Shown here one piece after another: positions 1 through 43,000 of a stretch of DNA of 64,000 nt (within the stretch, counting starts at the first letter, position 1; every line of letters starts with the position of its first letter). The position numbers were made by a program, and so were the translations under genes. Where the stretch lies: IMG/VR virus record IMGVR_UViG_3300050196_000085, positions 5,046-69,045 of that record; one strand, 5' to 3'. The stretch is from a virus. Under the pieces are notes generated by a model. The model did no database searches, was not told the DNA's origin, and saw only the letters and a program-made list of their open reading frames with translations.

Positions 1-498
1 AAGTATTTCTTCCATCTTGCTGTTGCCGTCACCTGAAAGCATCGACATCATCATGAGGCTGGACATGTCCATGCCACCAGTACCTTCACCGTTGCCACCG
101 AAGAGATTGGTGAAGCTCTTGACGATGGTGACACCACGGCTGATCCCCATCATGTTGACTTTGGTGGGGACGAATCGGCTGGAATGGCCCTGTACATTGA
201 GGGTGCGAAGCGAGCCAGATTCAGTGATTTCCTGGATGAAGCCGTAAGCTTTCTTTTCGGAAACCAGAATGTCACCTGCCTTGACCTGATCTACAGGCAT
301 CAGCATTGCGAACGCTGGAATAGCCATGCCAAAAAAGTCCATAGGATTTTTGCTCAGCTCTTCGCCGTCGAAGGTGACGATGCCAGTGCCCGTCTTGATA
401 CCGGTGAGTCCGGTCTGAAGATCGTAACTCACGTTGTCGATAGGCTGAATCATGGCCGACATTGCAGTGGCCATCTTGCTCTTCATGTCCTTGAACAT
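1..498 (-). CDS. Hypothetical phage protein, partial (runs off the left edge), with Met/Gly-rich C-terminal part
   Basis: Read by hand; absent from the ORF track because no stop lies in the window. AGGAG RBS, then ATG at 498, open to position 1: MFKDMKSKMATAMSAMIQPIDNVSYDLQTG...GGMDMSSLMMMSMLSG. Confidence 0.8.
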   Translation of the reverse strand, partial: MFKDMKSKMATAMSAMIQPIDNVSYDLQTGLTGIKTGTGIVTFDGEELSKNPMDFFGMAIPAFAMLMPVDQVKAGDILVSEKKAYGFIQEITESGSLRTLNVQGHSSRFVPTKVNMMGISRGVTIVKSFTNLFGGNGEGTGGMDMSSLMMMSMLSGDGNSKMEEIL

Positions 499-785
499 CA
501 CTTTTCTCCTAAGCGTACTTGTCTGTTGATGGATGAATAGCTCCGATCCACGAGAGCAGAAATGAGCTTAGCTCTACACCTCTCTGACCGGTCTTGGGAA
601 ACAGCATTACCTGTTTATTACTCAAGCAGCTTTTTTTGGATAACCACAGTCCAGTGGGTTATTAAGAGATCTTACATCTCTCCAAGAAATTTGAATTATT
701 TTAGTGTGCCGCTGGACGCCGTTGTTCCCATTAAGCCAGTCTCGTCTGACTCACACACTCCATGAATATGAGATCGTCATCTCTT

Positions 786-852
786 GATACGACAGGATTT
801 GAACCTGCATCTCGCTCTTCCGAGCAGGAAGTCACCAATGCTTCTCCGTATC
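786..852 (-). pseudogene. Degenerate tRNA-like sequence
   Basis: GATACG/CGTATC acceptor-like stem and T-arm GCAGG-TTCAAAT-CCTGT. The anticodon arm has an aberrant 4-nt loop (GCTC-GGAA-GAGC) and there is no encoded CCA. Confidence 0.55.
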
Positions 853-902
853 TATTCATGGCCTTGGGTCCGTCGAACGGTTTCCCTTGGTCTAATTGAA
901 TT

Positions 903-1021
903 TGGCCGAGACGGGAAGAGTCGAACTTCCACTAGCCATTGCGCTATGGCATCCACCCATACACCATCGTACCTTGCCAAGCCTTATCCGGCTCCAGCTT
1001 GGTTTGGTTAGGGTCGTCTCG
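903..1021 (-). ncRNA. Oversized (119 nt) tRNA-like RNA ending in G-CCA
   Basis: Perfect 7-bp acceptor CGAGACG/CGTCTCG, canonical T-arm GGAAG-TTCGACT-CTTCC and encoded GCCA. The interior is longer than a tRNA and non-canonical. Confidence 0.5.
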
Positions 1022-1425
1022 AAACGCTAAAGGATGTGAGGCACACATGCTCTCCGTTGGCCTACGAAATTGGTTATCACCTAGTGGTGGCCTAGAGAAT
1101 TTAGGCTTCGTGGCTTCGCCTCCCAGACTTACGCAACCGGGACATCCAATTCTGTTATCTGGTTCCCCCACCTAGCTTTTGTGTCGGGGTTCTGACGTTA
1201 TGTGCGGTCTAGGCTTCGTTGTTCAGCAGAGCTTCCCTGCCTACCATGTGCTGCGTTAACGTCCTATCCTTCAGGCGTATGGTACGTGAGTACCATCATT
1301 TAGCCAACAGGTGGGTGGGAAGAGCACGACACTGATTTGGAACCAAGAAAGGAATTCAAAGCATACGTTATCCATCAGGTATGCCAGCCGACCGAAATAC
1401 CCACAGAACGGGCAGGATTAGAATA

Positions 1426-1509
1426 TGGCCTTCTCGGTTGGAATCGAACCAACGACCGATCGGATGGGTAACTCCCATCGGATAGCTGTACCAACTAAGC
1501 TACACAGGG
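1426..1509 (-). ncRNA. tRNA-like RNA with an elongated anticodon arm and weak acceptor stem
   Basis: TA-GCT-TAGTTGGTAC-AGC D-arm, arm ATCCGATGGG-AGTTA-CCCATCCGAT, variable loop CGGTC, T-arm GTTGG-TTCGATT-CCAAC and GCCA end. Only ~4 of 7 acceptor pairs form. Confidence 0.6.
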
Positions 1510-1519
1510 GTATTAGTTA

Positions 1520-1886
1520 AATCTGGTGGTTGTTACGGGACAAGGGAACCAACCCTGCTGAGCTATCCTTAGAGCTTCCCATTTGTCTCAGGCCACTTCC
1601 GCGAGGTGCCGGTCAGGTGCATTACTTCCTGACCGGCGTGAGCATGTAATGCTCCAGCACAGAAGTCATCTGTCACTGGCACGCTCCCTCTTCTCGGAGG
1701 AGCTTTCACCCCAATTCAATCGACAGGAACGGTCCCCACTGCTCCATTCTTCAGGTTGGGTCAATGGGGTTTCACACAGTCGTCTGTGTCTCTTTTCTAC
1801 CCCAACCTACTGTCGTCGCCGACAGGCTTGTCTTCTGATCCGGGCCTAACACCCATTGCAGCGAGACACCCTGTCGAAGTTTCGAG
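1520..1886 (-). ncRNA. Long highly structured RNA of unknown class
   Basis: Successive stems: CTGTCG/CGACAG, GGTTGGG/CCCAACC, ACACAG/CTGTGT, GCTCC..GGAGC, GAGCAT/ATGCTC and the 10-bp GCCGGTCAGG/CCTGACCGGC. Ends in ...CAACCACCA. Confidence 0.5.
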
Positions 1887-1954
1887 GAAGCTGCTCTAAC
1901 ACTGAGCTACCGGGGCCGTAGCCCCGTTCCCGAGTTGAACGGGCGACCTTCTTC
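1887..1954 (-). ncRNA. Circularly permuted tRNA-like element (3' half precedes 5' half)
   Basis: GAAGA-AGGTC-GCCCG-TTCAACT-CGGGA-ACGGGGC-[TACG]-GCCCCGG-TA-GCTC-AGTGTTA-GAGC-A-GCTTC; every segment has the canonical tRNA length. Confidence 0.65.
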
Positions 1955-2038
1955 TTCTGGTCTGGTGGAGTATCATGTCTGGCCAGCTAAGGGCGTATGC
2001 CCACCATGATAGCCGCTAAGCGTATCCCTCAAACCAAT

Positions 2039-2129
2039 CACGATTGGTAAAGCGGGAGGATCTCGCTTCTGCTTCAGATCCTCAAGAGCCATGCACCCGT
2101 GGGTCGGCCTATCCGCTTTATCAATCGTG
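2039..2129. ncRNA. Branched hairpin: 17-bp closing stem with internal stems
   Basis: CACGATTGGTAAAGCGG/CCGCTTTATCAATCGTG encloses GAGGATCT/AGATCCTC and a second short stem. Confidence 0.45.
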
Positions 2130-2306
2130 TTATAAATTAGATGCTGTCATCGTGAGTAGTTTCCTCATCACATCTGCCCAGCGAAGCCATTTGATTTTTA
2201 TTACAATTCACAGACCAAATCAAACTGATGGTGCTAAATCTGTGAAAGGGTCTCCCTTTATCTGGGTCTCCACCCAAATTATTCCCTTTGGTCGAGTGAA
2301 CCTAAA

Positions 2307-2392
2307 GGACATTTAGAAGACGGTTATGACCCTACGGTTTCGTCTCATAAAGACTCATCAGATAACCTTTGAAAAGCGAAGGGTCACTGTCC
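2307..2392 (-). ncRNA. Hammerhead ribozyme, type I
   Basis: GGTTAT-CTGATGA-GTCT(TTATG)AGAC-GAAA-CC(GTAG)GG-TC-ATAACC: complete CUGAUGA/GAAA/GUC core and stems I, II and III. Distal GGACA/TGTCC pairing. Predicted cleavage between 2328 and 2327. Confidence 0.9.
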
Positions 2393-2468
2393 TGCCTCAT
2401 CTTGTCTGTAAGCGACAAGCCCTAATTGGCTGACTACCGTGCCCTTGCCCTGAACTTCCGTTCCAAAA

Positions 2469-2529
2469 TGGTGAGACTTGCTTCGCTTACCCCTTCCAAT
2501 GGGTAGAACCCGCTGCTGCACCTAGACTC
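2469..2529 (-). ncRNA. Short tRNA-like unit ending in ACCA, lacking a canonical T-arm
   Basis: GAGTCT/AGTCTC acceptor-like stem with one mismatch, TACCC-ATTGGAAG-GGGTA arm, GC-GAA-GC mini-hairpin and ACCA end. Confidence 0.3.
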
Positions 2530-2727
2530 AACTAAGTGAGTGTTAGCGATTATTCTCGCAAATGGTGATTTATCCCCGTGCCTGTACTATAACGGCTTGG
2601 GGTGAAATGGGTGGCCGCTTCTAACGGCTAACTACATCGTTTGTTCATTAGGAGCTATCCCCCGGCTGGTTCGATCTAGGTTGTTGAACATTTTGGGGCG
2701 GAGCCCCAAACCACAAAAAGAATTCCT

Positions 2728-2804
2728 TGGTGCTCTCGACAGGACTTGAACCTGTAATCTCAGAAATAGAAGTTCCGTGGCCTATCCAGTTGGCCTACGA
2801 GAGC
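2728..2804 (-). tRNA. tRNA-Arg (anticodon UCU)
   Basis: GCTCTCG/CGAGAGC acceptor, GGCC D-stem, CGGAA-CTTCTAT-TTCTG anticodon arm, ACAGG-TTCAAGT-CCTGT T-arm and encoded ACCA. Confidence 0.95.
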
Positions 2805-2821
2805 GAAAACCAAGAAAACAA

Positions 2822-3373
2822 TTAAGCGGTTACAGTGATATTCTTGGTGGCAGTGAATCCACCATCCTGCGAAGTTGCAGTAATGACAGTCGAGCCGTTT
2901 GCCACACGAGTGACAAGACCGGTTGCCGAAACAGTGGCTTTCGTTGGATTACTGGATACCCAAGTGACATTGCCGTTGGATGCGCCGGAAGGCGTCTTGG
3001 TAATGCCAAGTTGTACAGTCGGAGCTGCAACAGTGATCGTGCTGGTTCCACCGGGAGTAATGGCAATGCCAGTCAGAACCACATAAGTGGTATCCTGAAC
3101 AACCGTGATACCAGCCATGTCGGTGATGTTGTTCGGGAACTGAAGCGTACCCGGAACAGCCAAACCAGTGCTGGCATTGACGTGATACAGGGCATCACGA
3201 ACATGTTGGAAGAAGACGTGGTTCACGTCAAATTCCAAATCAGCAATGGCTGGCTCAACATCTGCATGAACGAATTCACCAATCTTGTTGGAACCAGCAG
3301 GGAGAAGATCTCCCTTTGCCTGAATTGTAACCACTTTTGTGGTGTTGTTGAACGCTATCTGATAATTGGCCAT
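2822..3373 (-). CDS. Capsid decoration protein with an Ig-like (BIG2) domain, N4 gp17-like
   Basis: N-terminal NHVFFQHVRDALY motif. C-terminal Ig-like motif VTWVSSNPTKATVSATGLVTRVANGSTVITATSQDGGFTA. Confidence 0.85.
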   Translation of the reverse strand: MANYQIAFNNTTKVVTIQAKGDLLPAGSNKIGEFVHADVEPAIADLEFDVNHVFFQHVRDALYHVNASTGLAVPGTLQFPNNITDMAGITVVQDTTYVVLTGIAITPGGTSTITVAAPTVQLGITKTPSGASNGNVTWVSSNPTKATVSATGLVTRVANGSTVITATSQDGGFTATKNITVTA

Positions 3374-3432
3374 GACAGGTGCCTATCTCTTTCTTGCAAG
3401 AAGAGGTGTTCCGAAGAACACCTTGACTTAGC

Positions 3433-3912
3433 TCAATAGCCTGCTGCTAACAAGGCCACCCTCATGAGAGTGGTATTGTCGAGTGAACCGGTACGAGCTT
3501 CAGCAGCCTTTGTTTTATCACCATTGTCGGTGAAGACCTTAGCAAGCACTCTGCGAGCTTCCAGAATTTCAGGCTTCACAGCCAAGTCTGGGTGCTCTTT
3601 AATGGCGGCATCTTTCCAAGCGATTAGGTCAGCAATTTGCTCTTGGAGCTGTTTAACCTGAAGGTTCAACTTGGTTTCTGGCTTCATTTGCATCTTTGGT
3701 GGAACGATGGGTTTACCATCACCTATGTAAATCTTATGATCTTTACGCTTGAGCACACCTTTCTTGATCTGCTCAGAAATTGGTGATGTGAGTGAATTCA
3801 TCTTGATGCCGGTGAATTCACTGATTTCTCGGGGAGTTAGTCCGGGAAATTCCCGGACCGTCTCTAGTATTCTTGTGATGTTTGACATCGGCTTTGCCTC
3901 AGCTAAGGGCAT
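3433..3912 (-). CDS. Putative winged-helix DNA-binding protein
   Basis: ILETVREFPGLTPREISEFTGIKMNSLTSPISEQIKKGVL HTH pattern. Start moved to the ATG at 3912 behind a GAGGAG RBS. Confidence 0.6.
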   Translation of the reverse strand: MPLAEAKPMSNITRILETVREFPGLTPREISEFTGIKMNSLTSPISEQIKKGVLKRKDHKIYIGDGKPIVPPKMQMKPETKLNLQVKQLQEQIADLIAWKDAAIKEHPDLAVKPEILEARRVLAKVFTDNGDKTKAAEARTGSLDNTTLMRVALLAAGY

Positions 3913-5134
3913 ATTCAGTCTCCTCAATGTCCTGCCACATTTCTAGGTCCAGCTTACCGATCTGCACGGTACGGCCAATGATCTGAGAGATTAGGTAGCT
4001 CAGCAAATCACTCTTAGCGATCAGCATCAGTTGGCGTGCATATTGGATACGTAGATCGTTGGCGTAGTTTGGATGGCAACGGAAGCAGTCATGCACACTC
4101 AAGACCTTGAATGGTTTCTCAGGCAGGCTTTCCAGTAGTTCCCAGATGACAGCAGGATCGACATGTCCCAGATTATCAGCGTTCAGTGCGTTGATGATCC
4201 GAGCCGAGAGATACCCGCAGTTCTTGTAATGCTCCCAAAGGACTACAACGAGCTTATCGTCGTTGGTCTTGGTTCCGTGTCCATACACAGGCACAGGTGC
4301 CTCAACAGCAAGAAGGTCATATAGCTTGTTGACCTTCTCGGTGTTGTAGTCGCAGCGTTCACCCATTTCACGGCAGATCATGCCATCAATGGAGTGAGTA
4401 GCGTTTGCACCAAGGCTACGACCTTCTTTCATTGGTCGATTAACTTTATGGAACACCTCGAATGGCTGGTTTAGGAAGTGTACGGTTTCTTTGATGGAAT
4501 CCATGACCTTGATCTTCACATGGAAGTTGTCGGGCAATACCCAGTCGTGGCTCAAAGCTTTAGAATCCCAAAACGAAAGCATTGCTTCGTTGAGTTCCCA
4601 AGCTCCGGGTGCAGCCTCGGTCATGGTATCGTAGAACAGATCCAGCAAAGCTCCTTCACCGAACACTTGACGCGGTACAGCACGGCTGGAATACAGACTT
4701 GTCATTATGGCCTGCTTCACATCGTCACGCTTAATTTTGCTTTCTTCACCAAGCTCATCGAGCATCATGTTGTAGATGACTGTGTAGCCGTCTTGACGCT
4801 GTACCACACTGTCATCATGAAACCGGAATGGCACGACGTTGCACAGTTCAGCAGATTGACGGCAGCCGGTTAGAGCAGCCAGAAGCTGCAATCCTGAGGA
4901 TGTGGCATCCAACGAGATCATGTAGCCTGAGGGCTTGCCTGCGAGTGCATCGTTATAAGCTTTGCAGCCTGCGTAGAACATTGCAGGTTCTTTGGCCTGT
5001 GGGATCAGCTCAGCGATGTTACCATCTTTGATGCTGTCGAACCAAGCAATACGCTCATCCCAAGTGAGCTTGTCTAGCCCATACGAATTGGCGATGTCGA
5101 TCTTGAGGTACTGAATCGGAGAAAAGCGTTGCAT
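3899..5134 (-). CDS. RNA polymerase II subunit 2 (N4 gp16-like, T7-type catalytic half)
   Basis: SLDATSSGLQLL (motif A), RDDVKQAIMTSLYSS (motif B), VLSVHDCF (motif C). Confidence 0.95.
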   Translation of the reverse strand: MQRFSPIQYLKIDIANSYGLDKLTWDERIAWFDSIKDGNIAELIPQAKEPAMFYAGCKAYNDALAGKPSGYMISLDATSSGLQLLAALTGCRQSAELCNVVPFRFHDDSVVQRQDGYTVIYNMMLDELGEESKIKRDDVKQAIMTSLYSSRAVPRQVFGEGALLDLFYDTMTEAAPGAWELNEAMLSFWDSKALSHDWVLPDNFHVKIKVMDSIKETVHFLNQPFEVFHKVNRPMKEGRSLGANATHSIDGMICREMGERCDYNTEKVNKLYDLLAVEAPVPVYGHGTKTNDDKLVVVLWEHYKNCGYLSARIINALNADNLGHVDPAVIWELLESLPEKPFKVLSVHDCFRCHPNYANDLRIQYARQLMLIAKSDLLSYLISQIIGRTVQIGKLDLEMWQDIEETEYALS

Positions 5135-5635
5135 CTATTGCGTCCTTCGTTTTCTTCGGTTGTTGGCTTGCTCTTTACGAGTGGCCCATCGGCAATTACC
5201 CGGATGGTAATCACCGTCATTGTTTATTCTTTCTATGGTGAGATCTGCTTGGTATCCATTTGATTTTGCCCAACCAGCAAATGTCTCATATGTCAGCCAT
5301 TGTTGACATACTTTGATCCCACGACCACCATAGTAATCGTATTTATCGCTATTGGGATTATTGCATCTGCTCAGCATGTTACACCACGTTTTATATAAAC
5401 GTGTACCGTGCTCACCATGAGATCTAGCACGATCCCCGGTGACTTGTTTTCGAACACATCCGCAGGATGTAGTTAATCCTCTTCTAAGAGAGTTCACTAC
5501 AATATCCTGTATGTTCCCGCATGAGCAGCGTGTTGGAGCAAACCTGATAGATCTACCTGAGTAGCGTTTACTGAAAGTTGGCCCCGTTACAGTCAACTCA
5601 CCAAATTGCATTCCATTCACGTCAATTGCTTTCAT
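5135..5635 (-). CDS. Free-standing HNH homing endonuclease
   Basis: [59 protein letters not shown]; the gene is AT-rich. Confidence 0.9.
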
Positions 5636-5669
5636 CACCGACTCCTTTGTTATCGGTGTAAGCTATAAT

Positions 5670-5702
5670 TTATAGTATTGCAAGTGCGGTGAACTTTTGC
5701 AT
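5670..5702 (-). pseudogene. Orphaned original 5' end of the RNAP2 gene
   Basis: GGAG RBS, then ATG CAA AAG TTC ACC GCA CTT (G) CAA TAC TAT AAA = MQKFTAL/QYYK, against RNAP2 MQRFSPIQYLK. Confidence 0.6.
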
Positions 5703-5735
5703 GATCTCTGCTCCTAGCGTCTTGAGATTGTTGGA

Positions 5736-5948
5736 TTACCAGCTTTGGTCTGGTGCTCGATTGCCGATCACCAGCCGGTTGAGATTATCTAACGTGGCGT
5801 GGTGGTAGATCTTGAATTCCCCCTTATCAAAAAGAGGAAGAACCTGCCCAACAGGCACCTCTACCCTGATGTCTCGATACTGATTGTAGATCAGAGCCTG
5901 AGGGTCTTGTCCGTTGGTGATCAACGGAATCTGAATCTTGACGATCAT
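5736..5948 (-). CDS. Hypothetical protein (70 aa)
   Basis: ORF track; ATGA overlap with the upstream small ORF. Confidence 0.75.
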   Translation of the reverse strand: MIVKIQIPLITNGQDPQALIYNQYRDIRVEVPVGQVLPLFDKGEFKIYHHATLDNLNRLVIGNRAPDQSW

Positions 5949-6079
5949 CGGAACCTCGTTTTGTGTAGAGGACGCTGCTTGGGAGCAGCCTTGTACCGAA
6001 GGTTCTTCACCTTCGGTGGCGTGTCGTCGTAAATCCCAGATGGTGTTGTACCACCTGAAAGGAATCCTCCTCTTGGCAT
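5945..6079 (-). CDS. Small basic hypothetical protein (44 aa)
   Basis: Read by hand: MPRGGFLSGGTTPSGIYDDTPPKVKNLRYKAAPKQRPLHKTRFR; its stop overlaps the next ATG. Confidence 0.55.
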   Translation of the reverse strand: MPRGGFLSGGTTPSGIYDDTPPKVKNLRYKAAPKQRPLHKTRFR

Positions 6080-6114
6080 GTGAAAGAAGAACAGACCGAG
6101 GTATGAGTATCTGA

Positions 6115-6306
6115 TCATGGTCCTACCCTATTGGTTCTGATCTCGTATGCGAGATTGCTGATCCTTCTGCGAAGAGCATCAGCTTCACGCTTTTGATCTT
6201 CATGGACGGTTGGTGAAGAGCAAATGTCTTCCATGGCTCGACTGGCCATAGCCAGCTTGCCTTGAAGTCCATTATGTCTCCAGATGAGCATTCGTTTGAG
6301 GCTCAT
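6115..6306 (-). CDS. Hypothetical protein (63 aa)
   Basis: ORF track; GAGG RBS. Confidence 0.7.
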   Translation of the reverse strand: MSLKRMLIWRHNGLQGKLAMASRAMEDICSSPTVHEDQKREADALRRRISNLAYEIRTNRVGP

Positions 6307-6338
6307 ACCTCGATCACTTCTGGTTCTGCCAACTCAAG
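6303..6338 (-). pseudogene. Orphaned original 3' end of the RNAP1 gene
   Basis: CTT GAG TTG GCA GAA CCA GAA GTG ATC GAG GTA TGA = LELAEPEVIEV*, against the RNAP1 end IQLADEEIISME*. Confidence 0.6.
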
Positions 6339-6975
6339 AAAGTGTGTGTGGTAACCCATTTTGGCGGATATAATCATTTCGAGCATCTCTTGCTTGTTCT
6401 GGAGTATCATGAACCCCAAGATGGGTTCTGACATCATAAGAGCAAATACTTGCTGCCCAGCGTTTTCCAACAGCATATACACCTATGTATGGTGCTTTAG
6501 AGTTGATGCGCTTCTTTTTATTTGCCGCTTGGACATTTAAGTTTGCCCAATAGCAATTACTGGGTTCGTAATTGCCTGTAACATCATGACGCTCAATTGT
6601 CAGATCGTGGGAATATCCATTCTGAACTGCCCAAAAGGCAAATCCATCATAGTAAGTCCACTCTTTACAAACACTAATTCCCAGACCACCATAATATTGG
6701 TAGTCTGGTCTATTAGGTTTCGAGCACCTAGCGTGCATATTAGACCAAATTTGAAATAATCTGGTCCTACTTGCCCCGTGTATTGTGTTCACATCTCGTG
6801 CGTAACACCCACATGATAGTGTAGCCCCTCGTTTGAGGTTCTGCCAAAGTGCTGTGATAATTTTACCACAATCACATTCGCACTCTATAGCACGCTTTTC
6901 ACCTTGACGGGGCATCTCACGTAAGAGGGTTAAACGCCCTAGCTTAGTCCCAAAGGGGATAATGTCTTTTGCCAT
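6334..6975 (-). CDS. Free-standing HNH homing endonuclease with a C-terminal AP2-like DNA-binding domain
   Basis: LGRLTL..CECDCG..SCGC..TRLFQIWSNMHARC..YYGGLGISVC..LTIERHDVTGNYEPSNCYWA. AP2-like tail YIGVYAVGKRWAASI..HLGVHDTPEQARDARN. Confidence 0.9.
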   Translation of the reverse strand: MAKDIIPFGTKLGRLTLLREMPRQGEKRAIECECDCGKIITALWQNLKRGATLSCGCYARDVNTIHGASRTRLFQIWSNMHARCSKPNRPDYQYYGGLGISVCKEWTYYDGFAFWAVQNGYSHDLTIERHDVTGNYEPSNCYWANLNVQAANKKKRINSKAPYIGVYAVGKRWAASICSYDVRTHLGVHDTPEQARDARNDYIRQNGLPHTLS

Positions 6976-9261: not shown

Positions 9262-9659
9262 TATTCTCCGATTGATTGGACACATGCTGCAAAGCAAGGA
9301 CGGTTGTCTGAAGGACGGTACAGAGTCTCAGATGCCCAATGCCAAAACAGTGTTTCAGGGTCATCTACTGCGTCCCTGCGTCTTGAGATTGGTTTGATGT
9401 TGCGACGAACATAAATGAGTAGTCCGTCAACGGCGAATGAGTCATCAATGGGCAAGATCTGACCATCAAACCTAATCCCACGAATGTTGGTTTCGTTGGT
9501 GCATATGTGGATCTCATCGAGCCTTCCGCTCCACTTGCATCTGACAAATTGACGAATATCACTGATTTGTCCTGCCGGTTCAGTAAAGAAGTTATCAGCC
9601 AGACGTTGAACCCAGCGTTTACCGTTCTTTGTGAAGTCTGCGATGACTGCATGAATCAT
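9261..9659 (-). CDS. Hypothetical protein
   Basis: ORF track frame; start moved to the ATG overlapping the upstream TGA. Confidence 0.65.
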   Translation of the reverse strand: MIHAVIADFTKNGKRWVQRLADNFFTEPAGQISDIRQFVRCKWSGRLDEIHICTNETNIRGIRFDGQILPIDDSFAVDGLLIYVRRNIKPISRRRDAVDDPETLFWHWASETLYRPSDNRPCFAACVQSIGE

Positions 9660-10027
9660 GAAGCCAGCTTCTCTATCAACCGCTTCACTACATGAGCATG
9701 GGTGAAGTAAGGTTGAGGCACACAACGAGTGGTAAGAATGACACCATTGCCAATGGCTTTGTTGTAGATGTCATCAAGAGCGATCATCACTTCTTGGTTC
9801 TGAGTTTTGACCTGTTCTTCAAGCCAGATGTCATACTCATCAACCTGATCGCTGTAGCTCTGGATGGTATAAGGACCATCTCCCAGATTGGTGCCTTTAG
9901 CGCCGATCCGAATGTGTGTAGGCATGGACAATGGACCGGTGTCCATATTGTATGTGCTGCTTACTGCTTGGGCACCCAGTTTGTTATCTGGGTGGTCTAT
10001 TTTTATGTAAGGGCCATCATTCCTCAT
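9656..10027 (-). CDS. Hypothetical protein
   Basis: ORF track; GAGG RBS. Confidence 0.7.
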   Translation of the reverse strand: MRNDGPYIKIDHPDNKLGAQAVSSTYNMDTGPLSMPTHIRIGAKGTNLGDGPYTIQSYSDQVDEYDIWLEEQVKTQNQEVMIALDDIYNKAIGNGVILTTRCVPQPYFTHAHVVKRLIEKLAS

Positions 10028-34001: not shown

Positions 34002-37000
34002 ATGGCTTCTCGCTACCAGCAGCTTTTGAACCAGTACGCCGGAGCAATGCCCACCCCATTGCCCGTGCAGAAAGCGGAAGAGGTTGAGCAGGCTGCTGAC
34101 TCCAAACGACAAATGCTGGAGGGCCTGACGCCACAAGACGGCTATGATGCTGCCACTATCCGTCACGATCCTAACATGGCTGGCCTCAGCTCGGCCTCGG
34201 AAATCGAACGAGATATGGCTACGGCCAGTCCGCTTGACCTGTATCTGAAGTACGGTGATGCAGCTCGTGGGATGATTGCCAACCGCAGTACCGGTAGCAT
34301 TCAGCGTCAGGCCGACATCACTAATACTGACTCCAATCGAATTGGAGACATGATTACGTCTATCCTCACTGGCACGACTAATCTCGTTGGTGGTGTGGCT
34401 GGTCTAGGTGCAGGTGCCCTATCTCCGGTGATCGGGGCCAAGCCCGGTCACGCTATTAATGAAGTCACTGGCGATGTTACCGGTTTTATCAAGGGGTTCC
34501 AGTCAGAAGCCGTGAACGCCTCGGATCGGGTCTATGACGCGGCCCGTCGTATGGCCGAACGTGACAACCGCGAGACGGCAAATGGAATTGCAAACGATCT
34601 TCGTCCTTATGTCGGCGACACCGTTGCCGAAGCTTCGGCCGGTGTGGCTGAAGGTGTGGCCGATACCTACTCGGCTCTGAAGAACTCGTGGGAGAACCCC
34701 ACGATGGCGCTGAATACTACAGGTGAGGCTATTGGTTCGCTACTGCCGATTGGCAAGTTGACCAAGGTTCTTGGTAAAGTAGGTGGTGCTGTAGTTCGCC
34801 GTGTTGGTATGGCAGGTGCCGTCGAAGAGATCGCCGCTGCTAAGACAGCCGGTCGTTATCTAACCGTGGGTGATCGCATCGCTCTGTCAGCCACTGAACA
34901 TGCTCCGGTTATGGCTGCTATTGGTCTGTCTGAAGCAGGCGGTTCATTCCAAGGTACGGAGCAGGAAGCCTACCGTCAACTGAAAGAGCAGGGTGTCGAT
35001 GAAGGGGATGCTCTACGTATTGCCAACAACGCTGGTCTGTCGGCTGCATGGAAGCAGGGTCTGGCTGCAATGGCCAGTGGTGCTCTGACTGCGAAGTTCG
35101 AGGCCAACCCGTTTGCTAAAATGTCTCCCCGCGAGTTCGCCAAGATCTTGCTCAAGGAGCCTATCGAAGAAGGTTTCCAAGGTGCATCGGGTCAGCTTGC
35201 CCAGAACCTTGCGGTGCAGGACTACGTGAACGCAGATCAACGTCTCATGGAAGGCGTAGGCGAGCAAGTGGGTCTAGGTATTGTGGGTGCTCTTGGTTCC
35301 ACTGGAGCTGTGCAGACACCGGGTCTTGCTCTTCGTGGTGCAATTGAGACGGCCAAGCTTCCTTTCCGTGCTGCCGGTGCTGTGCTTACGTATCAGGGCA
35401 ACCGTGTTGCTGCTCGGAACCAGAAGGTTCAGGATGATGCTCTTCGGGGTATCTTTGGTGAAGCTGATGCTGTTTTGCCGGATGCTCAATCTGAAGCTGA
35501 ACAGGCCATTGAAGCTGCCAAAGCCAATGCTACGGTTAAAGCTGCTGCTCGTGAATGGGTGAATGGTATGGTGGAAAGGTTCCAACAGACCAAGAGTGTG
35601 CAGGCTGCTGCCGACATCGTGAATAAGGTCGGTGGTGCCACCAAGGATAAGCTGGATGCTGCCCTTGAAGTCATCAACGGTATCCGTAATTCTGAGACCA
35701 CTCAGGATGATGAGACTCCGGCACCTTTGGCCAATACGACCATGCAGAGCATCAAGGATGCTGTGGCTAATGTGGCACAGTCTGAAGGTGTCCAGCAGGC
35801 CATGGACAATGCCAAAACCATGTTCGGTCGTGCTGCTGGTGCTATCAACGCTGGCGTTCGTTCGGCGATTGCTGGTCAACAAGCTCGTAAGGCATCTGCC
35901 CCTGAAGACATGCAGGTTGCTGCAAATCGTCTGGTAGGTCTGGCCGAAACCAATCCCGAGAAGTTGGACCCGGATGCTGCAAACCAGATCCTTTACCACG
36001 CTGGTCAGGGGACTATTCAGCTCACGCCGGTTCAGACGAACGCTCTTCGTATGGGTGTTGCTGCTGCGCGGACTGCCAAGGATGCCACCAATGTGGGCAG
36101 CAAGTATGGCCTAACCGGTGCTCAGGCGGTGGCCGAGAACGTACTCACGAACGGTCGAAAGAAGGGCGAGCGCCTTTCGCTTCAAGAGCACCTTAAGACC
36201 ATTCGAGCTGCGCTTGACATGGGTGATCGTGAAGCTGCTACCCGTGCGTTCCGAGAACTCAGTGGCTTTGCTCAGCACTTGTCGAACCAAGTCGTTGCGA
36301 TCAACGACGCTTTGGTTGGTGGGAACACGAACGACAAAAACCCAGTCACTTTCAATGCTCATGTCGGCAATGGTGTTTTTAAGCCCCTCGGAAGTCGGTA
36401 CGTTCAACCAACCTCTGAGAAGAGCGTCAAGATTGCCCAAGAGATGGCCACTCAGGCTGCTGTTGTCGGAGCGGCGGTGAACAACCTGAGTGATGCTTTC
36501 CCCGAGTTCAGCATCCCTCACATCGAAATTTCTTCGCTTGATCCATTGCTCGATGGTGATGCGACTACCGTCGCCAAAGAGTATGCGAGTGGGAAACGTA
36601 AAGCTTCGGTCAATGAGGCAGACAGTATTACTGTCGAGGCTGGGCAGGTCGATCAAGGTAAAACACCCTATGAGATGCAGGTGGTGGAAGAACCTAATGT
36701 AGATCAGACCAATAGTGAACAGGCTGTGTTTGAACCAACCCAAAAGGTTGAGCAGTCGCAGACAGAAGTTGTTGTTTCTGAAGCTGAAAAGGTTTCCGCC
36801 GTTGAAGAAAAAACTTTGATAACTGAAGCCACTCTTGTTGATCAACCGGGGGAACAGGGAATCGAATCCTCGGTAACTGACAAGCCTGTATCAGAGCAGG
36901 TTCCTGCTGAGGAAGTTCAGAAAGATCAGCGTGTTGGTGGTGACAGCAACCGGGTCACTCGTGCGTTTACTGAACCAAATAAACCTAAGACCCGTATTGC

Positions 37001-40000
37001 TGAATCGGTGTCACCCCTTCAAGATGTGAAAGATGCTTTGTCGTCTGAAACTGCTCTTCGTGAAAAGCTTGGTGAGATTGAGTTAAACCGCCGTTTCACT
37101 CAGGAAATTGCCGACCAGTATCGTGAACTTCTCGCTGCCGGTGAGCGCATCATTCAGGTGATGACGGCTCGAATGCAGAAAGCTGTCAAGAGCAAACTTG
37201 GTCGTTTGTCGTTTGAGGAACTGCTTCCTAAACTGGAAGCCGGTGCTCTCAATGCTGTGATCCAAGATGCCAATGGCAATTACATCTACGATCCAAAAAT
37301 TGTAGAATCCGCTGTGCTTGCTGGTCTTCAGTGGGTTCTGAAGATGAACAGCCATGGTGTGACCATGACTGATGAAGCTGTGCGTGAAGCCTTCGGTCTT
37401 ACAAGCGATGCTTATATTCCAGATGGTTTGGCAGACAGGCTTTCGGCTGGTCTCTCGACTGCCGAGGTATCTCGTTCTCTGGCTCAAGCCATTGGCCAGT
37501 TCCTCGGTCTGAAAGAACGCACTGACATTCCCGTGAATGAGGCACAGGCAGTCAAAGAAGGTCTTGCTAAGGAAGTTCTGACAGCATTGATCAATCAAGG
37601 TCTTGTTGATGAGTTCAAGGTGGACATCTCGGAAATCTCCACCCGTGACAATGTGTCTGATGTTGTTCGTTTCCGTCCGGGGGTTATGCGTGAAGCAGAT
37701 GCCATTGATGAAAGTGGTAATGTCAGGCGGGGTAATGTTGTTCGCGATGAGCAAGGTAACCGGATCAGGGCTATTGCCCCTGACGCTGCGATCCGTGGTT
37801 TCCCCGATGCTATTGAAAAAGCTGTACTAACTGACACACAGCCTGAAAGTTTTGTAGGTGAGATGCCTACTGAAGTTGCAAAAACGCAACTTCGGTCAGA
37901 CACACCTGTGACTAAAGAGCAACAGGAAGTGATCAAGGCTGAGCAAGCCATTGAACACAATGTCAATCTACCTTTCATCAATCTGCTGATTAGTGCTGGT
38001 CAGGAGTCTGAAGAACTGGTGTTGCGTCTGTTTGCTGGACAAATCGATGACACTATGAACGAGAACCACAAGCGTTCTGTTGAAGGTCGTCGTCTGATGT
38101 TCCAGTCTGCTTTCCGCTCGATCCAGAACCTCATGGCTGAGGTCACGAACGTGGCAAGCAAGAGTGGTCGTGATCTCGGCACTGTGCCGGTCTACTTCCG
38201 TTATGCTTATACGGTCGTAAACCGTCTTCAGATGTTGGGTAAGAACAATCCACAGTTCAGCAAGCTGATGCGTGAATTCATTCTACCTACGTGGGATGTA
38301 TTGGATCTGACTGATTCACAGAACCGCTTGAAATTCTCTCTTGGTCTGGCTCAGGCTCTTGGTGTGAAAGTTCACAAGGTTCAGCCTAAAGTGATGTTGG
38401 TCGAACTGAAGGATGCTCTTGCCAAGTTCCCTAAAACTCTGGAAATGTTGGGTAACAGCAGCTTCAAGCTGACTGAAGCTGCTGTCGATACCATGATTGA
38501 AGAGGGCGTCGAAAGCCCTGTAATGCTTCATGCCTTGATGGAGTACGCACGTCTTCAGAAGCCTGAGACCGACAAGAGCAAGTTCAAGACTGCTCTCTAC
38601 TTTGAAGCAGATGGTGTGACCAACGGTGTGGTCAACGCAATGTCATTGTTCTCGTCGGGCAGCTTCACACCAAACTGGGTGTCGAACATTCAGCGTGGTG
38701 GTCTGTGGATCGGTGAGCAAGCACTGTCTCTGGCTCATATTCGTCAGACTGATACTGATGCTCAAGACGATCTGTACGGAAAAGCAGCAGAGAACACTGC
38801 TTACAATGTGCGTAAGCTCATTCAGAGGCATGAGGGCAAAGACACAGGCGAGGTTATGCTCTCTGTGCTCCATGTACTAACAACCCTTCTTCCAAAAGGG
38901 ATCCAATATGATGAGAAGAGTAACAAGCTGAAGCTTGATCGTGCTGCTACCAAGAACCCATTGACCATCACGGTCTACGGCTCTGGTGTTATGGGCATTG
39001 CAGGTAACATTCTCGATGAAGCTCTCAACGCCATGTATGAGCGTTTCTCACAAGCTGCTGCTCGCAAGAAAGCTGATCCGTCAATCTCCGATGGTCAGGC
39101 ATTCTTTGGGGGTGATAGGGCTACGGCTGATAAAAAGTGGAATCGTTTCACCAAGGCTATGCGTGTCCTCGGGGCTAACAAACTCGTGAAAGAAGAAAAT
39201 AATCTCTACGTTGCAGAGACCGGCATTGATAGGATTCTTTCTGGTTCCAACTTCACGGATTACACCGTGGATAAGGTGGCAAAGCGTGCCCTTCAGGAAA
39301 GCTTCCTTCACGCTTTTGTGAACCCAATGGTTCGCGGGATCACCAAGACTGTTGGTAGTGATCTCATCGGCACTATGGATTTGATTAAGAGGCAGACTCA
39401 AACGTGGTCGCTGGTTGGTCAGTTCATGTACCAGAATGCCTATGAGAAAGCACTCAAGGCAAAGCGTGCAGCCAATCCTGATATGGATAGCTACGAGCTT
39501 CTGTCGAAGGATGAAGAAGACTTTATCCGTAAGCAGATCGATCAGAACCTACCCCAGTTTAGCACCGGGACACAGAACTATACGTTCGGTCAGCAACAGC
39601 GTCTGAACTTTCCGTTCATGACTTCAAAGAATGGCAAGCCCCTTGGGCTTGAATTCAGTCGTGCTTTGGATGATCGTTTTGAAACTCCAGCTTATGGCTA
39701 CATGCCGGGTGATGCTGGTGTATCAGGTCAACCTAACATGACCATTGGTAATGGTGATGGTCAGGCTGTGCAGAACATCATTAAAAACCCTGAAACGCCT
39801 AAAAAGCGTCTTCAGATCTTCGATGGTATTCACTCTACGATTGCCGAACTGGACAAGATGGGTCTCGCTGCAAACAAGGGTGTCTTCGACTCTTGGCAGC
39901 GTAATCCAATGGCTGATCTGGCAAAGGCATTTCGTAACTTTGCTGATCAGGTTGATCTGTCCTCACTGACTGAGGATCAGCTCAAGGCTCTTGCCAAGAG

Positions 40001-43000
40001 CGTTTTTGGTGGGTGGACTGCGGTTCCTGCTGCCAGTGATTTGGAATTGACCATCAAGACTATGGCCATTTCCGGTCAAGAAGTGGCAAACAACATTGCT
40101 GCACGTCAGCGTGTGCTTGCCAGTGTTCAGCATTCTGTGGACCAGATGGCAGGTGCGGCAGCACCTTATAGCAATCCGGGCTTGATCCTGTCTGGTTCGG
40201 CGGCAGCCAAAGCCGCTCAACTCAATAAATTGCTTGCCGTTGAAAAGGCCAAGAACGAGCCTGTTAGAGCGTTCGAAGCACCTACCCAGTCTGTGACACC
40301 AGATTCGACTGAAACGTCTGTAAAAGCCTCTGAGAGCAATTCTGAGACTAAAGCTCAAAAGCCTTCTTTTACCCAGATGAACATGTTCTCTGCTTTGGGC
40401 GCTCCGGTCACTTTGTTTGGTCGGGCATTAGAAAAAGTGATTGCAAAGGTCTCGGACAACCTGCTTACGCGGGCATTGCTTCGTGATGTAGTTCGATCAG
40501 ATAAGCTGAAAGATTACACCGTTTATACTGGAAGCCGTGAAGCATTAATCAATCGTGCTGCTGACATGGGTATCATTATCCCGGCTGATCGTCAGGATAC
40601 CTTTAATGGTATGATTCATCCTGAAAGCCGTCAGATGTTTGTGCTCAATGGTGATGCTGAAACGATGCTTCACGAGAGCATTCATGCTGTCACTTATGAG
40701 ACAGTTGCTGCTCATTACCGTGGTGAAAATGTCGGACCTGAAGCCAAGGCTGCTATTACTCGCCTTGAAGGCTTGATGGGGGAGTTTCGTAAGATTGGTA
40801 ATATCAACATTGGTTTTGGTTCAATTGGTAATCCCGAAGACATTATGAATAAAGGGACCAAGGAAGAGTATGTCTCAGCCTTTGGGCAAGACATCTTTGA
40901 CAGAATAGAAGCTGGTGAGATTACTGAAGAAATCATAAATAAGGTTCAAAAGGGTATAGACCTACTGGAAAGCAAACAGCTTAAAGAGCGATTTAACTCT
41001 TACGGAATTAGCGATAAAGTCTATTTCCGTATTGTGGATAGCCTCAGTAAGTATGCTGTTGCTCTCGGAGGTTCTACTATCGACACTGTAAATGGTGCAT
41101 ACCTGTATCCCAACAAGGATACAAAGGGCTTTGGGGCGAAGAAGCCTTTGCTTCTAATTGCCCGTGATATGATGGAAGACCCTGAAAAAGTTATTGATCA
41201 TGAAACTATCCATGCTTTCCGCCAGCTTGGTATGTTTACGGTGGAAGAGTGGAACACTCTTGTAACTGAGGCGCTTAGCAATAAGTCCTTGAAGAAGTCT
41301 GTTGATACTCGTTACATTGGATTGTCTAAAACAGCTCGTAATGAAGAAGCTGTTGCAGATCTGTTTGCTATGTGGCGTCAGAACAACAGTGTTGTTTCTG
41401 AGAAAAACAACTCGATCTTTAAGAAGCTTTTGCTGATGATTGGGTCTGTGTTTTCGGCCTTTAAGAATCAACAGAATCTTTCTGGTTCAGTTGAAGAGAT
41501 TTTTAAAAAGATTGTTAATGGTTCACTCGCAAAGCGTGGTCCGCAGCAGTCTGCTGTTTCTGGTCTTTTGGGTAGTGCAAGCATTGCTCAAAGTAGTTTT
41601 GATGTAGCTTATCAGAATTCTTTGGCTGAAATGAATCGCCACTTTATGAATGACGATAAAGCCGCTGAGCTGAATGAATTCATGGCTTGGTCGCTTTCGA
41701 ATGTCGCTCTTCGTGATAAGCTTCAGACTATCAAAATTACTGACAAGTCTCTCAGCATTCCCCGCAAGGTGGTTCAGACCATTAAGGCACTTCTATGGGG
41801 TGGTAAGCGTTCGGCTGCTGTGAGGGATGATCTTTTTACGAACATCCGGTTCAATACCGCTATCATCATGCGGTCTAACCCGACCCCCTCAGAGATGACC
41901 AGCAGTGCTACTCTGTATCATGATCCCAGCTTTGGTAATGATCAGAGACTGATCAAGCTTCTGGAATCGGTAAAGGGTAAAATTGCTGATTACATCACTG
42001 AAGATGTGATCAATCGTGTGAACCTTGCACGTCGTGCAGGTCTGGAACCAGCAAAGGAAACTGATGCAGCCAAAGGCTTCGAGAAGGATACTCGGGGTAA
42101 GGTAGACCGTGGTCGTATCCAAGGTGCATCGGCTGCTATTGCCTTTGATCGTGTTGGCTTTGACTTCACGATGCAGGAGCGTATGGCCTTCGTCATGATG
42201 GTGTCTGTCATGGCAACTGCTGCTGATCTGGATGCAAATGCTACCAGCCGTATGCAGGAAATCTACACGCATGTTGTTTCGAACCTTTCGGTCGATGATT
42301 TCTTGCGTGACCCGACCACCAACAACCCTGAAGACAATGAGCAGGCAAACAAGAAGTTCAATTTGCTGACTGGTGGCTTTGCCAACCGAACAGACAACCG
42401 TGATCGTTCATTGATTATGCCTGCTTTTGTGGCTCTTGCTGCAACCAACCCCGAGTTTCGTGCAATCATCAACAAGATGCCTATGCCAAAGGGTAAGTAT
42501 GTTGGTTGGAACTCGGTGGACAACATCCTCGATAACATCGGGGATATGGGCATGGATGCTGTGAGCCGTGTGGTTTCTGGTGAAGGTGCCCTGACCAAGA
42601 ATGTTCAGGACTCTATCGATAACCTTGTGTCTCAGATGCTAGAAACCAATGCTGAAGCAGAGATGTTCATCGAGAAGTACACCAAGCCTGTTGGCTCTGC
42701 CATTGATCAGGTCAACGAAAAGCTGGTGTCTCTTTTCAACTGGCTCGGTGAAAAAGCTGAAGCCAATCTTGAGAAAGCAAAGACCGATCCCGACGCCAAG
42801 ATCAAACTCGCTCTCGCTAGCAGCTTGAAGACTTTGACTGGTATTTTGCATGAACCTACTGGGCAGGGAACTGCCATGAAGGTCATGTCCACTGCTAACC
42901 AGTCTGAGGGACTGTGGAAGCCTTTCTATGATCTACTGAAGGATCTCGTTGGACGTACTGTTGAGAATGCTCGGGTTTATGATCTGATCAAGTTGGCACG

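Follow-up and report, generated by a model that had tools for sequence, protein, structure and literature searches.

We describe a compact type I hammerhead motif on the minus strand of an N4-like phage genome. Taken together, the sequence of the motif and the changes seen among its homologues make it very likely that it is a genuine self-cleaving ribozyme, and we consider it probable, with less assurance, that this ribozyme is competent to cut a long minus-strand transcript of the phage in cis and in doing so makes the 5' end of the RNA that lies downstream. The motif was found in a window of 64,000 nt, by which we mean the whole stretch of DNA that was analysed, and all positions given without a locus name refer to that window. 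We infer transcription, cleavage and the consequence for the fate of the RNA from the motif itself, its homologues, their covariation and the genomic context, which are laid out below.

The ribozyme proper is 46 nt long (2322..2367, minus strand) and its parts can be read directly from the sequence. Stem I consists of 6 bp and is open (2367-2362, GGUUAU, with 2327-2322, AUAACC). It encloses the core segment C3-A9, CUGAUGA (2361-2355), stem II (GUCUU at 2354-2350 with GAGAC at 2346-2342 and loop UAU, the fifth pair being a U.G wobble), the G12 A13 A14 segment GAA (2341-2339), a stem III of 3 bp with loop GUAG (2338-2336, A15.1-C-C, with 2331-2329, G-G-U16.1) and C17 at 2328, with the predicted scissile bond between C2328 and A2327. 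Stem I is open and stems II and III each end in a hairpin loop, which is the type I topology as defined for Rfam family RF00163, and the alignment of the window ribozyme to RF00163 spans model positions 1-45. The core positions required of hammerheads are C3 U4 G5 A6 N7 G8 A9 G12 A13 A14 A15 U16 H17 (Perreault et al. 2011, PMC3088659). All of them are present here; the A15.1-U16.1 pair is formed by A2338 and U2329, and H17 is C2328 and not G. An earlier sequence-only reading of this DNA had already placed the type I topology, the core and the stems on the minus strand, and every one of these details is correct on direct reading, as is the motif position of the cut that it predicted after C2328. 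The span which it assigned to the ribozyme, 2307-2392, contains the ribozyme but also includes flanks.

When the 46-mer is folded in isolation, its minimum free energy (MFE) structure is the hammerhead fold, at -8.3 kcal/mol. Fast natural hammerheads typically have a tertiary contact between stem I and stem II, in the form of a loop-loop or loop-bulge interaction or a pseudoknot. Inspection of the flanks of the window ribozyme by eye revealed no segment complementary to loop II (UUAUG) and no evident loop-loop or pseudoknot interaction, and as stem I is just 6 bp long and open, fast cleavage at cellular Mg2+ is not assured. An A-rich 5' flank ('UCAAA', 'ACAA', 'UAAA') is recurrent across the ribozyme class introduced below, and that 'UCAAA' provides a tertiary contact is only a guess.

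The search for homologues used a pattern in which the core and the initial bases of stems II and III were fixed, whereas stem I was left unconstrained. The scan returned 45 matches, two in viral contigs (L002 and L003) and 43 in metagenomes, and a perfect stem I of 4-8 bp abuts the core in 42 of the 45, in about 19 different sequences. We built a covariance model, R1, from 26 sequences of the class with the window ribozyme among the seeds. On the collected loci R1 yields 55 matches at E<=1, all but two of which (53) have E<0.001, and the window ribozyme, as a seed member, scores 62 bits (E 2e-17). In the 39 distinct rows the share of paired cells is 96.3%; shuffles reach 71.7% and slid partners 28-40%. 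In these 39 sequences all of the modelled pairs of stem I (6/6) have changed on both sides. The pair counts were taken from a CM-based alignment (A4), because three or four sequences whose stem III loop is longer are out of register in the MAFFT alignments A2 and A3. Because A4 is fitted to the model, the pattern-independent count of stem I (42/45) is the cleaner evidence. In copies that lie outside the pattern selection, stems II and III covary as well (GCCUG/CAGGC; ACGC/GCGU; ACAUCCC/GGGAUGU) and N7 is variable (U, C or A).

One of these comparisons involves the viral contig L002, whose RNAP2 gene is 70% identical to that of the window at the nucleotide level. A 29-nt centre of its hammerhead is identical to the window ribozyme, stem I reads GGGUAU/AUACCC and the loop of stem III is AAAU. 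When the spacers of the two genomes are compared by blastn, just two pieces align: one is the ribozyme, with 89% identity over 47 nt, and the other is a block that lies about 100 nt beyond it. Two close relatives of L002, L049 and L052, have stem I GGGUGU/AUACCC and GGGUGU/GCACCC, respectively, against GGUUAU/AUAACC in the window. Judged from these alignments, the N4-like lineage of L002, L049 and L052 carries the same ribozyme with compensatory changes in stem I, and, on the covariation described above, the window motif is a member of a real and widespread, if poorly catalogued, class of compact phage hammerheads. In many members of the class stem I is followed, after 3-5 nt, by a 'GCCA/GCCC' motif (seen in the flanks of L003, L016, L021, L022, L028 and L045), and the window ribozyme is without it. 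BLAST searches of the region, near and distant, against 50,697 phage records gave no match at 1e-5. With a 54-nt query at E<=10 the OLIVR phages are the only meaningful matches; matches to a holin and to mycobacteriophages obtained with the same query are short and were rejected as chance.

A descriptor scan of both strands of the 73,268-bp genome finds the window ribozyme as its sole match. Among 1000 dinucleotide-preserving shuffles an equally good motif occurs in 4 (0.4%) and any looser type I motif in 23 (2.3%), a result which is suggestive and, where very many windows are scanned, weak by itself. The sequence-only reading had proposed an Rfam search with hammerhead covariance models as a check. 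At gathering thresholds this search reports no hammerhead in the window, and the motif is seen just in E-value mode, where RF00163 gives a full-length alignment with 20.5 bits against a gathering threshold of 34 (E 8.4e-4 per genome), RF00008 gives 27.2 bits against 48.5 and the RAGATH-1 hammerhead model 18.6 bits against 56.3. Other compact members of the class that were scanned are likewise below gathering (for RF00163, 31.4 bits in Agrobacterium phage OLIVR1 and 21.8 bits in L050). The gathering threshold is set for curation and is no criterion of structure, and the compact class as a whole stays under it.

Two alternative explanations bear on the motif itself. One is that it is a chance resemblance, an inactive statistical accident of a large scan, as might be argued from the shuffle frequencies, from the many windows that a scan of such size covers and from Rfam scores that are all under gathering. 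However, the motif is kept with compensatory changes in a related lineage, within a spacer that is otherwise unalignable, and it fits a class with strong covariation. Since the homologues show compensatory changes, chance is excluded for practical purposes, and we regard it as the least probable of the readings considered here. The other explanation accepts the ribozyme and makes its activity conditional. A segment upstream of it (GGACAGUGACCC, 2381..2392, minus strand) can pair with GGGUCAU and UGUCC and would thereby sequester the cleavage site, and this alternative pairing could slow or gate cleavage. As a conditional switch, the segment 2392-2381 would pair with the 3' strand of stem III, the cleavage site and the 3' strand of stem I, and would limit cleavage to a co-transcriptional window or to particular conditions, tuning the ratio of full-length to cut RNA. 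The alternative fold is indeed favoured by about 6 kcal/mol over the hammerhead fold in the MFE structures of 86- and 131-nt contexts, but in a 221-nt context the hammerhead fold is part of the MFE structure and the segment 2392-2381 pairs elsewhere. The z-score of the 86-mer MFE (-1.47) is unremarkable and the competing segment is not conserved in L002, L049 or L052, that is, it is specific to the window. We therefore consider such a switch improbable, if somewhat less so than a chance match.

The genome that carries the ribozyme is an IMG/VR virus record of 73,268 bp and 99% completeness, and DNA of the phage is detected in leaf-litter metagenome runs; the public sequencing runs listed as containing it were all of DNA and none of RNA. 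As criteria for an N4-like phage (Schitoviridae) we used a genome of ~70-75 kb, a two-subunit T7-like RNAP2 and a gene for a giant virion RNA polymerase. The window encodes a split T7-type RNA polymerase, RNAP2, with a PF00940 fragment at 3899-5134 and best matches (57-58%) to Erwinia phages Frozen and Ea9-2 and to Rhizobium N4-like phages, and a 3768-aa ORF at 34002-45308 is the candidate for the giant virion RNA polymerase gene. By these features of its gene content the host phage is N4-like, of the Schitoviridae type. Neither RtcB (PF01139) nor Ro60/TROVE (PF05731) was found in a search of the phage genome. The closest complete relative, L006, has an RNAP2 about 75-80% identical to that of the window; relative to the window, its RNAP2 gene contains an insertion of ~830 nt (L006 5180-6010) which may be of the homing-endonuclease type. 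The segment 2835..1266 of the window (~1.57 kb), which includes the tRNA-Arg, the hammerhead and a YrlA-like module, is without a counterpart in L006 by blastn, where ~400 nt are found instead. No hammerhead was found anywhere in the whole genomes of the complete relatives L006 and L005, nor in any of the twelve loci recruited through the RNAP2 protein (L004-L015). Because these complete relatives are without one, the hammerhead is accessory and dispensable for this type of phage.

The immediate neighbourhood of the ribozyme is an ORF-poor non-coding stretch of about 2.2-2.3 kb (502..2727, minus strand, from the ORF list), which holds the hammerhead and several tRNA-like modules. It is flanked by co-oriented minus-strand genes, that of a Big_2 protein at 2822-3373 and an ORF bounded at 501. 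Between 8220 and 2822 the minus strand is densely filled with ORFs, and the next one starts near 501; the hammerhead has the same orientation as these flanking genes and as the tRNA-Arg, and no minus-strand terminator-like site was found in positions 1-4000. Packed co-oriented genes and the lack of a terminator-like site there place the ribozyme on the strand for which transcription is expected, and it looks as if it lies inside a single long minus-strand transcript. We also considered the upstream protein as a conserved partner of the ribozyme and rejected it: the window gene encodes a Big_2 protein and the L002 gene a MucR/Ros protein, and the two are not homologous.

The tRNA-Arg (2728..2804, minus strand, anticodon TCT; Rfam 64 bits, also ARAGORN) is the sole bona fide tRNA of the genome. 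Its 3' end is at 2728 and the predicted cut at 2328, in agreement with the earlier estimate of about 400 nt between them, but to speak of a tRNA cluster, as the same reading did, overstates what consists of one bona fide tRNA and sub-threshold tRNA-like pieces. One such element, at 784-853 (minus strand, 25.2 bits against a threshold of 29), has its anticodon loop replaced by a tetraloop, and in another, at 1435-1504 (minus strand, 23.7 bits against 29), the anticodon arm is lengthened and the acceptor stem is poor. A third module, at 1866-1966 (minus strand), consists of a T-arm, a closed 6-bp acceptor-like hairpin (CGGGGC-UACG-GCCCCG) and a D-arm. This order of modules is that of YrlA, a bacterial Y RNA, and the phage is without a Ro60/TROVE gene. 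The permuted tRNA that had been placed downstream of the hammerhead thus corresponds to a real-looking module, but one that reaches just 22 bits with the YrlA model against a gathering threshold of 69. In L002, a permuted two-piece alpha-type tmRNA gene (2386-2768, minus strand, 106 bits) is located 1.4 kb downstream of the hammerhead on the same strand; in L052, the stretch corresponding to this tmRNA region is unaligned to L002 and has no tmRNA at Rfam gathering.

The second piece of the spacer that is common to the window and the L002 lineage belongs to a putative structured non-coding RNA (2140..2321, minus strand), which would make up the 5' portion of the product released on the 3' side of the cut. 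It is predicted to fold, directly after stem I, into a Y shape (a closing stem and two hairpins) and then into a long hairpin, and the Y-shaped fold is followed by a block of the form GGCUU..CUGGGCAGAUGUGA, a variable and covarying hairpin, and CGAUGACAG. By blastn, window positions 2232-2146 match L002 4037-3949 at 72%, and a four-sequence alignment of the downstream RNA analysed with RNAalifold gives 49 pairs, 16 of which show changes on both sides. The ribozyme and this RNA right after the cut are the only pieces of the spacer that the window and the L002 lineage have in common, and on this comparison the downstream RNA is co-conserved with the ribozyme in L002, L049 and L052. Its conservation refers to two independent lineages only and its structure is provisional. 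The downstream RNA (2140..2321) has no match to RAGATH-32 or any other Rfam family at E<10, and a search of viral contigs for the pattern of the block (CUGGGCAGAYGUG...CGAUGAC) gave no accepted match apart from L002. Pattern matches in L059-L061 were rejected as chance; they are coding-like and have no convincing hammerhead nearby.

Loci oriented on the ribozyme show how other members of the class are placed. Nearly all copies are intergenic and co-oriented with their neighbours, and in many cases the preceding ORF ends 0-90 nt ahead of the ribozyme and the following one starts 15-50 nt behind it. Several independent lineages have the hammerhead inside or near tRNA arrays (the L024 group, L026, L018, L037 and OLIVR1). 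At L024 2168-2297 (plus strand) the hammerhead starts 3-4 nt after the CCA of a tRNA-Met, and a long tRNA-Arg(TCT), 85-88 nt in size, is found some 150 nt further on, an arrangement that recurs in many metagenome samples (relatives L029, L036, L041, L044, L047, L048, L057 and L058). The hammerhead of L026 is located between tRNA-Tyr and tRNA-Gly in an array of 12 tRNAs, and the hammerheads of L018 and L037 are near tRNAs. The metagenomic contig of L026 also bears a GOLLD RNA (9428-9891, plus strand, 241 bits). Some contigs have multiple copies (four in L030, two in L028 and two in L022). Those of L030 lie within 2.3 kb (4065-6401, minus strand) and have an identical stem I (GUAAUA/UAUUAC), whereas their stems II and III differ; they resemble repeats of a module punctuated by ribozymes. 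In L033 a RAGATH-32-like match (836-902, plus strand, 25.8 bits against a gathering threshold of 41.8) directly follows the hammerhead. A cultured phage is represented as well: Agrobacterium phage OLIVR1 (Schitoviridae; L062, MT234338.1) has an unannotated hammerhead of the class at 3960-4009 (plus strand), in its early region, between the small ORFs gp12 and gp13 and 575 nt before a tRNA-Thr, which scores 50 bits with R1 and 31.4 with RF00163. Its cut is predicted after a GUC at ~4001-4003, immediately ahead of the AUACAC strand. The annotated 34-aa gp13 (4030-4134) starts about 20 nt past the end of this ribozyme, in the RNA after the predicted cut. The biological role of bacterial and phage hammerheads is an open question, for which transcript processing has been suggested (PMC6765202), and the layout of the class agrees with that suggestion and with published phage hammerheads in polycistronic RNAs (PMC3088659).

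We propose the following sequence of events. As the RNA is made, stems I-III would fold around the CUGAUGA/GAAA core, and the 2'-OH of C2328 would attack its own 3' phosphate. The upstream product would comprise the end of the RNAP2/HTH/Big_2 message, the tRNA-Arg, ~360 nt of spacer RNA and nearly the whole ribozyme, and would end in a 2',3'-cyclic phosphate. The downstream product would start with 5'-HO-AUAACC and continue into the structured non-coding RNA and then the tRNA-like modules. The ribozyme would in this way separate the half of the transcript that contains the tRNA-Arg from the rest, and the two halves may differ in stability. As the type I topology leaves six ribozyme nucleotides on the 3' product, the ribozyme would act mainly by creating, independently of host RNases, the 5' end of what lies downstream, and since the RNA after the cut is the only other segment of the spacer kept in the L002 lineage, we take this RNA to be the one whose 5' end the ribozyme makes. 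Cutting of a long tRNA/ncRNA transcript in cis had also been put forward by the sequence-only reading, and it is the best-fitting reading in view of the co-orientation, the lack of a terminator-like site and the contexts of the class.

Two further explanations concern what the cut is for. The ribozyme may be a passenger of a mobile or accessory RNA cassette, an active hammerhead in a swappable module whose cut serves the module, for example by freeing it from any host transcript, and not the gene expression of the phage. The replacement of ~1.57 kb of the window (2835-1266) by just ~400 nt in L006, and the absence of a hammerhead from the complete genomes L006 and L005, would fit such a cassette, as would the four copies with identical stem I in L030 and a cargo that varies by lineage (the permuted tmRNA of L002, which was not found in L052, the RAGATH-32-like RNA of L033, and the tRNAs of L024 and L026). 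However, neither repeats nor an integrase nor any other sign of mobility was identified in the surroundings of the ribozyme, and the specific unit of ribozyme plus downstream RNA is common to two lineages only. This explanation is also compatible with a processing role and overlaps with the one we prefer; we consider it unlikely as a replacement for it, although it is the most serious of the alternatives. The ends left by the ribozyme could alternatively be meant for joining. Hammerhead products, with a 2',3'-cyclic phosphate and a 5'-OH, are substrates of RtcB, and an RtcB-type ligase would join them into a circular or spliced RNA. The chemistry of the ends fits, and tRNA-like, permuted-looking modules are found nearby. 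On the other side, a single ribozyme in the genome defines no excisable unit, within the window no further family of self-cleaving ribozymes attains its Rfam gathering score, and the phage has neither RtcB nor a Ro60/TROVE gene. The earlier suggestion that the cut creates ends for ligation or circularisation is for these reasons unsupported, and we give it a very low probability, between those of a chance match and a conditional switch.

Returning to the processing of the long transcript in cis, a broader version of this idea can be stated, though we hold it only tentatively and think it rather less likely than its alternatives taken together. The hammerhead and the RNA behind the cut may be a self-liberating unit that is exchanged among N4-like phages and was added to the tRNA-like cassette, and compact hammerheads may be general makers of 5'-OH ends for such RNAs, and for tRNAs elsewhere, without RNase P or RNase E. 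If true, this would be the hammerhead counterpart, at 5' ends, of the role proposed for theta ribozymes at tRNA 3' ends. A search of the literature found no description of hammerheads as 5'-end makers of this kind in phages.

Phage hammerheads have been known since 2011, and the window copy adds one more, which by itself is little. The wider significance is that compact type I hammerheads of environmental phages fall under every Rfam gathering threshold and are consequently left unannotated, that such ribozymes recur in early and middle regions and in tRNA/ncRNA stretches of N4-like phages, including the cultured OLIVR1, and that the link to a conserved RNA starting at the cut offers a concrete hypothesis for the job of the ribozyme in the window phage. 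With the bacterial and phage type I hammerheads of RF00163 (clan CL00010) the window copy shares the identical catalytic core, three helices and an open stem I. It differs from them in being compact (46 nt, with just 6 bp in the open stem I and 3 bp in stem III), in having no recognisable pseudoknot or loop-bulge contact and in scoring below gathering in every hammerhead family. Intergenic hammerheads of phages (PaP3, Bcep176) are on record, as are polycistronic RNAs that contain several ribozymes (Perreault et al. 2011, PMC3088659). Like these hammerheads, the window copy is in an intergenic position in a phage and co-oriented with the neighbouring genes; unlike them, it lies in a non-coding stretch of tRNA-like RNA and not between protein genes.

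Theta ribozymes, to which the sequence-only reading compared this hammerhead, are minimal HDV-like ribozymes with a double pseudoknot, and their cleavage sites lie no more than 5 nt to either side of a tRNA 3' end (Kienbeck et al. 2024, PMC10879173). The comparison is a loose one. In both cases a small self-cleaving phage ribozyme is found near tRNA genes, and theta ribozymes have been proposed to replace host RNases. However, the folds are different, theta ribozymes cut at their own 5' end whereas the window hammerhead cuts near its own 3' end, and the window cut (2328/2327) is separated by 400 nt from the 3' terminus of tRNA-Arg (2728), well outside the distance that characterises theta ribozymes, and would define a downstream 5' end, not an upstream 3' end. 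Theta ribozymes are also known mostly from gut phages, whereas DNA of the window phage comes from leaf-litter metagenome runs. A further related arrangement is that of the hammerhead plus RAGATH-32 modules (RF02922). The downstream RNA of the window differs from these in having neither a RAGATH-32 match nor the 'GCCA/GCCC' motif and in being common only to the L002 lineage. The organization is nevertheless alike, in that a structured and conserved RNA begins right after the cleavage site, and because it begins there, the ribozyme would liberate an RNA with a 5'-OH end.
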